Virus record (IMG/VR): IMGVR_UViG_2757320370_000007
Span: 9,719 to 73,718 of that record
DNA length: 64,000 bases
DNA from: a virus
Reading direction: 5' to 3' (one strand)
Positions 13,662 to 57,290 of the stretch are shown piece by piece. The notes beneath the pieces were generated by a model. It had not been told where the DNA came from and made no database searches. It was given only the letters and a program-made list of their open reading frames with translations. Every line of letters begins with the position of its first letter. The first letter of the stretch is position 1. The translations under genes and the position numbers were made by a program.

Positions 13662-14181
13662 TTTATTTCTCCTTTTAATATGTATTTTCACTTTATAAAA
13701 CTTATTTCTTACTTAAGCCGATCATACCAAACTCTCTGATCAAACTCTCTCCAAGCTTCCTTCCAAAACTTCTCATCCAGAGTATCCATTTTCTTAAATT
13801 CCTTCACTCCGATGAATTCCTTTAACTTCTTCTTCACATAAGCATCCTCATGCAAATTCACCTCATTCTCGCTTCCCATATCATTCTTGAAACAATCATA
13901 CAGCGCATCTCCCAAACTTATGTATGTTTTATTTGTCATTGTTTAATCTTTTTAACACCTCCCCATTCTCCAATTTCATATCCTTCGGGAAGCTCATCGA
14001 TAATATCCCATCGACTTAATATATTCTCTTTCCTATCCCCTAAACTTTTACAGAAAACATTATTCTCGTCATACCAATGTACTGATCCACCAAACATTGA
14101 ATATTCTAGTGTTCCAAATCTTCCATCTTTCTTATGTTTCAGGATTTCCAATTAATCACCACCTTTTATACTCATATTTTA

Positions 14182-14210
14182 ATTATATGTTTACTTTATA
14201 AGTCTGTCAA
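14182..14210 (-). promoter_or_regulatory. Consensus sigma-A promoter with operator motif in the spacer
   Basis: TTGACA-gacttataaagtaaaca-TATAAT; faces the nrd cluster. Confidence 0.85.
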
Positions 14211-14403
14211 CAAGTTTCACAATCGATTCTTTGCTGCTCATAATCATCAGTAAAATATGGGCAACTCGTAGCACGGAATATGTATTTACCATTGTCTGAG
14301 ACCGGAGTAATGTTGTCAAACATTCTGAAGTAATCATTGTACTGAAGCTTGTAGAGCATAGTTGGAACCCACTCATCATTAACTAGTTTCTGGAATGTTC
14401 TCA

Positions 14404-14730
14404 TTAATTCTGAAATAAAAAATCGTTTTCTTCAGTTACAATTTCTTTAATATTCATCATAATTTTATCCGAGGTCATATTCACATCAGGAACGAAAGTT
14501 AATGCTTCAGCTACAGAATAACTACCATCTCTGTTTGCTTGTTGTGTTGATACTTGAACCAAGCAACCATTGGGCAAATTGCACACTTTTGTTGATTTCA
14601 TCCAGCCTTGAGATTCAGAACTTGCCTTACAAAGTAGAGCGAAAGTATCTCCATCTCCAACAACTTTGATATCTGAAACTTTCTTTTTTGCATCTTCAAT
14701 ACTATCAACTGACAGGTTTTTATTTTCCAT
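14404..14730 (-). CDS. Conserved phage protein (KASS..GWMKSTK..GCLVQV..AEALTFVP)
   Basis: Motif-rich small protein with RBS; function uncertain. Confidence 0.55.
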   Translation of the reverse strand: MENKNLSVDSIEDAKKKVSDIKVVGDGDTFALLCKASSESQGWMKSTKVCNLPNGCLVQVSTQQANRDGSYSVAEALTFVPDVNMTSDKIMMNIKEIVTEENDFLFQN

Positions 14731-14986
14731 TATTAATCATCCTTTTTATTTTATTTATGTTCTGATCAAAGATACATTTTATTTACTTCACATTTTCCCA
14801 GTTCTAAAACGTCTTTCCATCATTTTTTTGATTCCATCACTATCTTCTAGTGTTTTCTTCACTTCTTCATTTGTCGACATAGTATCAATTAGGTCATTAA
14901 AGAATTCTAATTCTACTCCCTTAAAAATCTTGCCAGCCTTTGTTCGTAATTCGCTTTTTTTCATTATTGTCTCCTTCATACTCTTA

Positions 14987-15046
14987 ATAAAATTTGACTT
15001 TCGTGTGCTTTTCAGTGTTAGAAATCCCTTATAAAACAAGGTTTTT
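14987..15046. repeat. Composite site: 18-bp palindrome + 17 bp + AAATCCCTT-N7-AAGGTTTTT
   Basis: Same fixed spacing at 20541-20599, 27930-27989 and 31629-31688. Confidence 0.75.
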
Positions 15047-54133: not shown

Positions 54134-55336
54134 TATTAAATTTCTCCCTTAATATATGTATTTTTACTTATTAAACTTAATATTATTTTCTTGCATGAAG
54201 TCCTCTAGAATTGTTCTTTGATCATTTGTTAATTCCAATTCATATGTATAAATCGTTCTATCTTTTGGCAATGGTTTGTTGATTTCATTGTATTCAACAG
54301 TATTAATCCCATCGACCCAATATAGTCTGTCTCCGATATCTTGTTTGGCACTTCCTATTTCTGCTTGAATTTCAACATCATAGAACTTGTCTCCGATCTT
54401 ACAAATCAAACTCACTTCGTCCTCGTAGTATCCTTGACCACAATTGAAGAATTCGCGCCCGCAATCTTCGAAATATTCTACAATTTCACTTTTATCAGTT
54501 AGATATTTCGACTCGTATACGTCATAATCTTCTTGTAAGTACTTTTCCATCGTTTTTCTCCCTTAATATGTATTGTTATTACCGTGAAACCTATCATTTA
54601 TCTAATTCCTTTGATCTCTCACATATTTATGTATATCAACCAACTCCCTAAATTTCCTCTTGTTCATCATTTCATCAATCTCATCCATCATCTGATACAT
54701 GGACTCCTGGAAGTCTTTCCGTAGAGATGACGGACAATCCAATTCATTTGGAGCTGCTGCCTCATGACCTTCTTGGCTTTCATGGCAACACGACTCAAAC
54801 GCATTCCACAGACAGTGTGTATTGTTACACTTCATCATTCTCCACCTTTCTACGTCCGTGCCTTCCTGCCGCCAAATCGTCTAGCATTGCACTGGAAGCA
54901 TATCCATTAGCAGTTCTCCAGAAAATTATATCGGCAGTTGGATAAACACCGTTGCCACAATTAGGGCAACATCTCTTTGGATTAGTCTTTTTAAACTTCA
55001 CAACCCTTGGTTTGTTTCCCTTCCATCCACAATTACACATCAATCTAATTGGTTCTGGCTGGTTGTGATATTTCTTAAATAGTTCTCCTGATACCATTAA
55101 CTACACCTCTCATATCCTTTTAAAAGTTATATTTCACCATACTATTAGTACCAATCTGGAGCATATCGTTCACTTGCCTCTTTTATCTTTACTTTTTCTT
55201 CTAAACATTTTTCACAGAAATATGTATCGACTCTTTTAAAGTAATCAGTCCAGCCGTTTGATTGTCTTGTTTTTTTAGTATCTAAATGAATAAATTTATG
55301 TTCACAACTCAGAACTTTCACCTCTTTTTTATCAAA

Positions 55337-55882
55337 TTACAATTTGATTAACCTTTCATAACAAGCTTTGATTACTTTTGCGTCATGTAATGCATTATGT
55401 TTTACACCATTCATTCCTGCAAACATTTCACGATTTATATCTGGATCAATACCTTTAATCTTCATCAATGTACAGATGTCAAAGGGAATGTAATACACCT
55501 TTGATGGTATTCTAAATGCATGTCCCCATAATTGGTTAAACAGAACCCAATCATAGGATAAACAATCGGACCACATTTCCACCTTCTGAGTAGAACCAAC
55601 AAGTGAGTCTAACCAGTGATGAAGCTTTGTCTGTATGAAGAATGTGTCTCCTTTGTATTGCAAGTGTTCACGGTCATGGACTTCAATAGCATATGCTTTA
55701 TCATTCATCAGAAGATTATCAATGACGTTTTCTAATAGCCATGTGTCACCCTTCGCTTGATTTTGATCATAATCTGTAAATTCCGCATAAAACGTTTTTC
55801 CATCCTCTGTAATCAATCCGATGCTGATTAGTGTAGTATTCTGGTGTAATCCGGTGAACTCAGTGTCAAAAAACACTTTCAT
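55337..55882 (-). CDS. DEDDh 3'-5' exoribonuclease (Rv2179c-like)
   Basis: [21 protein letters not shown]. Confidence 0.85.
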
Positions 55883-56055
55883 AATACTCTCCTTTTTATG
55901 AAATCACGTTTTGATTAGATTATGTCACCATCGCCAAAGATCAAAGCAAATAAGAAAGCTCCACCGCCACCAAGCAAAAGAGTGGCAGCAACACCTACAA
56001 AGAAACTGTTCCAATCAATACTATTGATAAATTCTTGCATGTTTATATCTCCTTC

Positions 56056-56763
56056 CTATGATCCAAAATGTTCTAATTGATTATTCTCCAGAATCTCAAT
56101 CTCTCGCTCACTAAATCCAACATCATTAAGCCTCAGAAGCATCTTACTGATCTCTTTATTGCTCACTGTCATTCCTCTCTCCACGAATCGAGGAAGTCTT
56201 ACAATGGTTCCTACAATATCTCTGGCTCTGCCTTTGTTGTAGTAAATCTTACTTCCACTAACAAACTTCCAATCACTCAGACAGACGACTTTGCCATCTC
56301 TCCAATAGGTCATATTGTGTAAAAAATCAAATTGATTAATCACTTCCTCAGGCTTGCCAACCCATTGAGTAATGATCTGGTATTTGCCCAAAGTAATTGC
56401 ATTTTGAGTAATAGTCATATTGATGCCATTGTACAATCCACCGCTTCGCACTTCACCTGTATAAGTTGCCTGTTTAAGAAAATAATCTCTAAGTCTTTCA
56501 ACTAAATAGTTTGACTCCACAAAAAAATCATAATCCTTTGGTTCCTTGCCATGATAGAGACTGTAAATGCAGCCTCCAGATATGTACGATTTATCAAAGA
56601 ATTCTTTTTGCAATTCTTCAGGTAATAGTTTAATGAGATTATCTTTAACATACAGAAGTTCATTGTTGATCTTATTGATCTTTTCATTATGTATTTGCTC
56701 TGATGTCTTATATGTATTTTTTAAAATTCCTATCTTCAACAGCAGTTGTTTAATTAGTTTCAC
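56056..56763 (-). CDS. Nucleotidyltransferase-like protein, paralog of 34419..35270
   Basis: YISGGCIYSL..PKDYDFF..NAITL..FDFLH..RFVERG. Confidence 0.65.
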   Translation of the reverse strand: MKLIKQLLLKIGILKNTYKTSEQIHNEKINKINNELLYVKDNLIKLLPEELQKEFFDKSYISGGCIYSLYHGKEPKDYDFFVESNYLVERLRDYFLKQATYTGEVRSGGLYNGINMTITQNAITLGKYQIITQWVGKPEEVINQFDFLHNMTYWRDGKVVCLSDWKFVSGSKIYYNKGRARDIVGTIVRLPRFVERGMTVSNKEISKMLLRLNDVGFSEREIEILENNQLEHFGS

Positions 56764-57290
56764 TCTGTTCTCCTCTCAATTTCTTAATCAAATTCTCCTT
56801 TCATTCAAACATCATATGACTAAAACCTTTTTCTTCATTAATTCCCCAATGTTCAAATTGAGATTTAACTGTTTGATCTTTTGAAACAACTATGTATAAA
56901 TCGCCCAACTTACTGAGATAAGAGTCTTGTGCTTCATTAACATATTCAGAATCCCCTACCCAGTCTACATAGAATTCATCTTTTGTTTCATCGTCATAAA
57001 TCAAATTCACTGAACAAATATCTCCGTTCGATAGTCGTTCGAAGGCGTTGTGTTTATATTCTTCGATATCAAACGCAAAATAATCTTTATTAGCGTGTTT
57101 GCTAATCGCAATTGAAAATAGATCACAAGTAGTCATATGCGTAATACTTTGATAATGTTTTGTAATATGATTTTTCAAATCTCTTACTTGAAAATTGCCT
57201 ATGTGTTTGCCCTCAATGATCAATACTTCACAATTTTCTAATCCAAACTCAACCGAAGTTATTTTCTTCAATTAATCTCCTCCCCTTTGT

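Follow-up and report, generated by a model that had tools for sequence, protein, structure and literature searches.

Palindromic sites with private centres between the accessory genes of an SPbeta-like prophage, and their probable role as joints for gene exchange

The window analyzed here, a 64,000-nucleotide stretch of viral DNA (IMG/VR record IMGVR_UViG_2757320370_000007, positions 9,719 to 73,718), carries many copies of an 18-base palindrome lying between small genes, and these palindromes, together with the stop codons that they supply to upstream genes, are the subject of this report. The window corresponds to G000:C1:4033557-4097556 in a single-contig genome of 8.54 Mb with 49.7% GC and lies inside an island of approximately 180 kb with 34% GC, at approximately 4.02-4.20 Mb of G000. 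By our own crude gene calls, the island holds approximately 320 genes, of which approximately 230, up to 4.136 Mb, are mostly small and on the minus strand and are followed by large plus-strand genes. Class Ib and anaerobic ribonucleotide reductases, a RecJ-like exonuclease, DnaB-like and primase-like proteins, and a Sak4-like AAA_24 protein are encoded in the window; outside it, a large serine recombinase was identified at the right end of the island, and an HU-like gene adjoins an 860-aa open reading frame (ORF) with no Pfam match. From its large size and low GC, a YopP homolog (described below), the serine recombinase, and an ORF of a size comparable to YonO beside the HU-like gene, we read the island as an SPbeta-like prophage. 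A megablast comparison of the window with the phage collection returned zero matches, and a genus-wide DNA search found the window elsewhere only as gene-sized fragments.

The palindrome has the form RTNAAA-N6-TTTNAY, and the stop codons discussed below lie, on the coding (minus) strand, in the narrower form RTRAAA-N6-TTTYAY. The window has 18 exact copies of the narrower form, each with a 6-nt spacer, compared with 0 copies at spacings 3, 4, 5, 8, and 9 and 2 at spacing 7; genome-wide, G000 has 54 exact copies, approximately 29 of them in the island. When scored with a symmetrised weight matrix at a threshold of at least 12 bits, the island yielded 72 sites vs approximately 8 in Markov shuffles, and 46 of these sites fall in the window, including 40 at gene junctions. 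The consensus is (A/G)T(N)AAA, not-A, N4, not-T, TTT(N)A(T/C); c-A-n-G-A is conserved more weakly at +19 to +23, on the downstream side alone, and the usual gap from the end of a site to the next start codon is 14-25 nt. At the variable positions 1/18, 3/16, and 7/12, Watson-Crick pairs were no commoner than in shuffles; because the arms show no covariation, the element is not a conserved hairpin of RNA or single-stranded DNA, an RNA or cruciform structure was rejected, and the element looks like a double-stranded dyad site. The 6-nt centres are unique within each genome, and palindromic centres are rare (1 observed vs 5.4 expected, p=0.03). Two further ideas, that of a guide array and that of duplicate site cores at other places in the genome, were rejected, as the matches were only scattered and at chance level.

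The initial annotation of this DNA had claimed that the first arm of the palindrome provides the stop codon of the upstream gene in a fixed register, with some further ORFs reading through the arm and stopping in the spacer. We re-derived the 15 claimed ORF ends on the minus strand, and all of them were correct (Table 1). Of the arm stops, 8 lie at strong sites (12.9-18.5 bits) and 3, those at 13709, 40267, and 46852, at degenerate ones; among the spacer stops, those at 42793, 53006, and 55337 were borne out at strong sites, but the site at 25665 is doubtful. In total, strong sites (at least 12.9 bits) hold 11 of the 15 stops and degenerate sites 4.

A register of this kind is partly built in: among the 57 junction sites with an assigned upstream stop, 47 have TRA at arm positions 2-4, so that an ORF entering in one of the three frames is bound to end on it. 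Upstream genes were nevertheless in the arm-stop frame at 31 of 55 island junctions (p=4e-4) and at 91 of 191 junctions (p=3e-5) in a five-phage sample comprising the island, SPbeta, and the collinear prophages G057 (same genus), G451, and G372 (other genera). The register thus survives as a favoured frame, a part of the effect being owed to the TRA in the arm. Of these 191 junctions, 55 have a stop codon that begins at arm position 2 and 15 have one that begins two bases ahead of the arm; in 23 it lies in the spacer and in only 3 beyond it. Among ORFs reaching a site, 93 of 96 end by the last spacer base (position 12); at co-directional junctions without a site, overlapping genes were found in 139 of 779 (18%). 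ORFs run up to the site and almost never across it, and the tabulation of stop-to-site distances that had been proposed as a check places the overlap above chance.

The stop also persists when the gene in front of it does not. We identified 16 address-matched pairs, that is, sites with the same centre in 2 phages, in which the two upstream ORFs are unrelated and differ in length and each takes its stop from the site, be it the TRA of the arm or a TAA within the conserved centre (window examples: 18125, 42784, and 49353). In that sense, the stop codon belongs to the scaffold of sites, as the title of the initial annotation had it. The same annotation proposed that genes were captured or trimmed right up to the site and, as a check, that C-termini be compared for replacement there. 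In the one case checked, the trimming was supported and the C-terminus was not replaced: gene a95 (window 32573-33208) has its stop outside any site, and its homolog b65 in G057 has it in the arm, where the natural stop coincides with the arm TAA; each protein is 211 aa long, and the last residue is the only difference at the C-terminal end.

Table 1. Palindromic sites in the window with the stop codons assigned to them and their recurrence in related prophages (positions are those of the window)
Site	Position	Strand	Stop of upstream ORF	Relatives and remarks
Degenerate, GTAAGA-aataag-TTTTAT, 1.8 bits	13695..13712	-	TAA in arm register, ORF ending 13709	AAAATACATAT just downstream; no counterpart found in G057 or G451
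Strong, GTAAAA-ggcgta-TTTTAT	18125..18142	-	Arm TAA, ORF ending 18139	Spacer also at G057 4261956 and G451 61321, where an unrelated ORF of 211 aa likewise ends in the arm
Doubtful, ATTAAA-tagcaa-TTCGAT, 0.3 bits	25656..25673	-	TAG (offset +6), ORF ending 25665
Strong, GTGAAA-taaaag-TTTTAT	26264..26281	-	Arm TGA, ORF ending 26278
Strong, ATAAAA-gtggca-TTTCAT	39817..39834	-	Arm TAA, ORF ending 39831	Identical 18-mer at G057 4287965, both flanks unrelated
Out of register, GTAAAA(A)-cgaatc-TTTGAT	40252..40270	-	TAA, ORF ending 40267	Extra A in left A-run; collinear G451 82418 is canonical GTAAAA-CGAATC-TTTCAT with the same centre; may be a decayed, out-of-register joint
Strong, ATGAAG-tgagtc-TTTTAC, 12.9 bits	41649..41666	-	Arm TGA, ORF ending 41663
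Strong, ATAAAA-caattc-TTTTAT	42498..42515	-	Arm TAA, ORF ending 42512	Spacer also at G057 4291446
Strong, TTGAAA-taatac-TTTCAT	42784..42801	-	Spacer TAA (offset +6), ORF ending 42793	Spacer also at G057 4291775, where the same spacer stop ends an unrelated ORF
Weak, ATAAAT-tacatt-TTTTAA, 1.2 bits, status as site uncertain	46838..46855	-	TAA, ORF ending 46852	No counterpart found in G057 or G451
Strong, ATGAAA-tgcgtg-TTTCAT	49353..49370	-	Arm TGA, ORF ending 49367	Identical 18-mer at G057 4298107 and G451 88439; unrelated upstream ORF stops in the arm in G057
Strong, GTAAAA-ggcacg-TTTCAT	51530..51547	-	Arm TAA, ORF ending 51544	Spacer also at G057 4299296 and G451 89771
Strong, TTGAAA-tagttc-TTTCAT	52997..53014	-	Spacer TAG (offset +6), ORF ending 53006
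Strong, ATCAAA-ttgtaa-TTTGAT	55331..55348	-	Spacer TAA (offset +9), ORF ending 55337
Strong, ATGAAA-ggagaa-TTTGAT	56787..56804	-	Arm TGA, ORF ending 56801
Junction site, spacer gacaag	2908..2925			Also in G057
Junction site, spacer gatata	19063..19080			Also in G057
Junction site, spacer cttatc	23374..23391			Also in G057, flanks unrelated
Junction site, spacer gaatag	25049..25066			Also in G057
Junction site, spacer tatagg	27930..27947			Also in G057; behind a terminator-like tail
Junction site, spacer ccctca	33253..33270			Also in G057; downstream gene a95 has a homolog in a different G057 slot
Junction site, spacer gcccga	35957..35974			Also in G057
Junction site, spacer gtttac	37424..37441			Also in G057 and G451
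Junction site, spacer caaata	39365..39382			Also in G057
Junction site, spacer ttagcc, 19.2 bits	40701..40718			Also in G057
Weaker site, spacer gtatcg	44863..44880			Also in G057
Junction site, spacer ttgggc	45811..45828			Also in G057
Junction site, spacer ggtcta	52745..52762			Also in G057
Junction site, spacer tataac	55120..55137			Also in G057
Junction site, spacer gacaga	62562..62579			Also in G057 and G451; just downstream of the Sak4-like AAA_24 gene

We compared the sites with those of the collinear prophages to follow the centres from phage to phage. A clear motif excess was found in only approximately 9 further genomes, in a family-wide pattern scan of 401 genomes and in five genus relatives. 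The island and G057 are collinear, with 67 called genes in common by blastp, most of them in the approximately 230-gene early region, and their common DNA is 63-88% identical. Identical 6-nt spacers in the same orientation numbered 34 between the island and G057, 15 between the island and G451, and 25 between G057 and G451, vs 2, 0, and 0 reverse-complement matches, which served as an internal control for chance; 33, 13, and 24 of them, respectively, were in collinear order, compared with 2-3 in the reversed-order control. The more distant G372 has few addresses in common. Chaining of the island with G057 gave 33 pairs matching at 6/6 and 6 at 5/6 (reversed-order control: 2 and 5), and the spacers are therefore approximately 99% identical per base. 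At these matched sites, arm positions 1, 3, and 16 are only approximately 50% identical, near random expectation, and identity is at background from position -1 and past approximately +23. The list of shared 14-mers was too noisy for any use except to show that its collinear matches outside gene blocks fall on sites.

The DNA on either side of a conserved centre is rarely conserved with it. Across the three comparisons, a tblastx test of 300 nt on each side of 70 matched sites found both flanks unrelated at 57, one flank related at 13, and both related at 0. Genes flanked by sites had homologs in the relatives less often than other genes (20/78 vs 70/146, p=0.0016), and shared genes are mostly without a site (51/64). 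One slot with different cargo is cleanly exemplified by window 44863-45828, in which 2 sites bracket a plus-strand gene (44990-45754) inverted relative to its neighbours; the same two centres, gtatcg and ttgggc, are 383 bp apart in G057, around a different 99-aa gene. With 6-nt centres kept in order between unrelated neighbouring genes, the earlier proposal that the palindromes mark a cassette boundary rather than an ordinary promoter operator gains support.

The same picture was found in Bacillus phages. SPbeta carries 32 sites of at least 12 bits vs 4-8 in shuffles, nearly all of the form ATAAAA-N6-TTTTA(T/A) and many just ahead of ribosome sites, with the upstream gene stopping in the arm at no fewer than 6 (at least 6) sites. 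The right ends of SPbeta, phi3T, and Goe11 (23 kb), only 55-73% of which is alignable, have an ordered series of centres in common: gatcaa, tttgtc, tattcc, ttcaat, gtttta, ggatga, gggtaa, gaatac, ctaata, ttctaa, and tcggtc. Shared sites coincide with homology breakpoints in 23 of 33 cases; identity begins at site position 1 or ends at 17-18, and where both flanks differ, it comprises exactly the 18 bp. Homology thus breaks at the edge of the site in this trio, and unrelated genes in the same slot use the site's stop, both of which agree with a cassette boundary. In the laboratory hybrid Hyb2phi3Ts-SPbeta, the left junction falls in a 1.4-kb stretch that runs from site GATCAA to just past site TTTGTC and is identical in both parents, and it carries no weight either way.

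Taken together, these data make it likely that the palindromes are fixed joints between the accessory-gene slots of an SPbeta-like prophage, at or inside which phages swap DNA only between equal centres. Each joint has a private 6-nt centre, and related phages keep the order of the centres, with unrelated genes replacing the DNA between joints. Because the centres are kept in order while the intervening DNA is replaced, exchange between phages would occur at or inside the site and only between sites with a common centre. Genes are packed up to the joint, so that an ORF arriving in the T-R-A frame ends on the arm's own stop and ORFs in other frames stop earlier or on a chance stop in the fixed centre; such packing, along with T-R-A in the left arm, yields the fixed register seen in the initial annotation. 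Crossing-over would take place inside the centre and would need matching centres, and a tyrosine recombinase would carry it out.

The island has one tyrosine-recombinase-like gene (L038:10283-11341, equal to G000 4135283-4136341, minus strand). Over its full length, the encoded protein is homologous to SPbeta YopP (27% identity, E 5e-28), and it is not a homolog of MrpR/YopR. YopP is a core gene of SPbeta-like phages without an assigned function (PMC10516654). The catalytic residues of tyrosine recombinases follow the pattern R-K-H-R-H/W-Y; in the YopP family, residues R163, K191, H255, and Y290 were present in 7 of 7 aligned homologs and R258 in 6 of 7, and the R and K align to XerD. A YopP homolog was identified in all five motif-rich genomes searched and, in G057, G451, and G372, within approximately 25 kb of the fetched motif-rich region. 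This circumstantial evidence points to a YopP-family tyrosine recombinase as the candidate enzyme acting at the sites. It is conceivable, if rather doubtful in its full form, that this phage recombinase catalyses crossovers only between equal 6-bp centres in a natural version of recombinase-mediated cassette exchange, and that dozens of mutually incompatible sites allow diverged phages to exchange accessory genes, anti-defence genes among them, one slot at a time with their order kept, the sites supplying the stop for the upstream gene.

Several observations weigh against joints of this kind. Many of the mosaic breakpoints in the three Bacillus phages are well away from sites, and the sites are therefore hotspots and not the sole route of exchange. 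The wobble bases of an arm had been predicted to follow the neighbouring homologous gene; they did so in only 1 of 8 and 2 of 5 cases, and the idea was not supported. YopP belongs to the core genes of SPbeta-like phages, so that finding it alongside the motif adds no independent support, and in the island homolog, a Q replaces the histidine of the L-x-H motif before the catalytic tyrosine, which is conserved in six other homologs; judged by this substitution, the island protein may be less active than its relatives. There are also hints of regulation in the placement of sites 14-25 nt before start codons, in the terminator-like tails near some of them, and in the conserved bases at +19 to +23, and the sites may have a dual role in regulation and exchange.

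We weighed three other explanations against addressed joints. It appears very improbable that the overlap of stop and arm arises by accident from the composition of an AT-rich intergenic motif and has no functional bearing, given the frame bias, the contrast between 93 of 96 entering ORFs ending by spacer position 12 and 18% overlaps at site-free junctions, and the site stops that unrelated genes in the same slot have in common; in its favour, TRA is in the arm by definition and the arm stop is used at 6 of the 18 exact window sites, as a naive expectation of one in three would predict. We give almost no credence to an integron-type attC, the class to which the initial annotation had likened the palindromes, in which gene plus site would form a mobile cassette moved by an integron-like integrase on folded single strands. 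The gene-by-gene punctuation, the ORFs ending in the first arm as in attC R'' boxes (a parallel drawn in that annotation), and the single tyrosine recombinase gene of the element fit such a scheme, but the arms do not covary, the total length is 18 bp without a GTTRRRY core, and a search of Rfam at gathering thresholds gave zero matches in the window. Moreover, the centre stays with the position and not with the gene while genes change, and a95 and b65, the same gene in different slots, did not carry a site of their own along.

The chief alternative is a site of regulation at which recombination proceeds through short homology. The palindrome would then serve mainly as an operator, as a silencer of the stoperator type, or within an early promoter, with a dimeric phage protein bound to it; shuffling would be a by-product of short homology acted on by phage annealing and exonuclease proteins, as has been proposed for the promoter-early stem-loops (PeSLs) of T4-type phages, and the stop overlap would reflect packing. 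Independent variation of the two arms is what a double-stranded site bound by a dimer would show, the position ahead of start codons, the terminator-like tails before several sites, and the gene-side conservation at +19 to +23 would suit regulation, the prophage encodes both a Sak4-like AAA_24 protein and a RecJ-like exonuclease, and the PeSLs offer a precedent (PMC2839356, PMC4122927). However, a regulator gives no reason for position-specific centres that are approximately 99% conserved beside saturated arm wobble, with both neighbours replaced. Only 12 bases are surely identical between matched sites, which is short for exchange by homology, a process that would favour conservation of the whole site. 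Shared core genes, moreover, are mostly without a site, and the known SPbeta master repressor binds a different element, SPBRE. On this balance, we regard a primarily regulatory palindrome as unlikely and retain addressed joints as the better account.

Other repeated sequences were noted around the palindromes. Some sites are preceded by endings of the type ...TTATAAGGGTTTT (window 27948-27975 and 14988-15030; island 4031075), which look like the 3' halves of intrinsic terminators, so that some joints would be transcription-unit boundaries. A second repeated motif, approximately AAGTAAAAATACATAT(A/T), was identified on the minus strand at window positions 13675-13695, 20515-20535, 25020-25045, 32135-32160, and 54149-54170; it lies 8-20 nt downstream of some palindromes, ahead of the ribosome site, recurs in G057, resembles one half of the SPbeta SPBRE (AAATACA...TGTAT), and may be an early-promoter or repressor element of this phage. 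A further repeated 18-mer, TATATTTACTTTATAAAT, was found on the plus strand at window 27093 and 44006, with island copies at 66195, 92466, 94833, 102904, and 142322 in window numbering, and at three places in G057. Elsewhere in the genome, a second, smaller cluster of exact palindromic sites was located at G000:C1:3228340-3255857 (3.23-3.26 Mb), with a weak tyrosine-recombinase match nearby (3267041-3267520), and G057 has a matching cluster at 3.261-3.309 Mb, with two site sequences identical or nearly identical to those of the G000 cluster and a YopP homolog at 3268620-3269630. The second G000 cluster is probably a second related element.

If the sites are addressed joints, they would be clear support at the sequence level for the "linkers" of the modular theory of phage evolution and would account for the renewal of accessory genes, likely anti-defence genes among them, in large temperate phages whose gene order stays intact. 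Their presence in SPbeta, a model phage of Bacillus subtilis, makes the idea directly testable, and dozens of natural, mutually incompatible recombination sites would be of interest to genome engineers. For annotation, many small phage genes would then owe their stop codon and their final one or two residues to the scaffold and not to the gene itself.

Among known systems, attC sites fold into an imperfect hairpin (R''-L''/L'-R') of 57-141 nt with a GTTRRRY/RYYYAAC core and move with their gene, and cassette ORFs often end in the first repeat; an integron has an IntI integrase with attI and Pc at the head of its array, and the only tyrosine recombinase gene of the island is the YopP homolog. 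The palindromes are similar in punctuating single genes and in having ORF ends in the first repeat, but they differ in their short length and fixed position and in lacking both hairpin pairing and the core. The core sites of tyrosine recombinases (dif/Xer, loxP/Cre, and FRT/Flp) consist of inverted arms around a centre of 6-8 bp, in which the arms tolerate degeneracy, the centre is exact between partners and asymmetric, and cleavage falls at the borders of the centre, and engineered heterospecific variants of them serve cassette exchange. Inverted and degenerate arms around a strictly 6-bp centre are found here as well; the approximately 99% conserved and rarely palindromic centres give indirect support to a need for matching, asymmetric centres, and the candidate recombinase gene has predicted catalytic residues. 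The arms are 6 bp (with approximately 5 weak bases on one side) instead of 11-13 bp, and there are dozens of centres per genome. We know of no natural ordered array of mutually incompatible sites.

One repeated element of SPbeta-like phages is SPBRE, the operator of MrpR (YopR), which is bound by this protein of tyrosine-recombinase fold; it is a 15-bp sequence, approximately AAATACAAAWAATATGTAT, located between the -35 and -10 boxes of approximately 10 promoters (Kohm et al. 2023, PMC10516654), and it was read here from the SPbeta promoters listed in that paper. The palindromes are likewise a repeated element of these phages, but they differ in sequence and placement, and SPbeta has both SPBRE and ATAAAA-N6-TTTTAW sites, so an identity with the MrpR operator was rejected. 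A promoter for YonO was also rejected, as YonO transcription of the late genes in SPbeta begins at a single start, upstream of yonK (PMC5467207), unlike the dozens of early-region sites described here. In full-text literature on SPBRE, on SPbeta repeats, intergenic regions, and mosaicism, and on PeSLs, with the 1999 SPbeta genome paper outside its coverage, we found no description of the sites.

PeSLs are short repeated intergenic motifs among the non-essential, variable early genes of T4-type phages; they contain a strong sigma-70-type promoter and a terminator stem-loop, serve as exchange points between otherwise unrelated sequences, are thought to recombine mutually by homology, and can form mini-circles (Arbiol et al. 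2010, PMC2839356; Comeau et al. 2014, PMC4122927). The palindromes too mark exchange points between unrelated sequences in variable regions, but they are 18-bp dyads without a paired stem, with private centres and an ordered scaffold kept between phages, and no -35/-10 pair was found to fit within or beside the 18 bp. In Acinetobacter plasmids, Xer-type pdif sites flank adaptive genes as exchangeable dif modules, which are mobile, have sites on both flanks, and are served by the host XerC/XerD (Mindlin et al. 2019, PMC6449649). The sites described here resemble them in that several putative recombination sites surround exchangeable genes in accessory regions; they differ in that the palindromes stay put in a collinear phage backbone and that the candidate enzyme is encoded by the phage.

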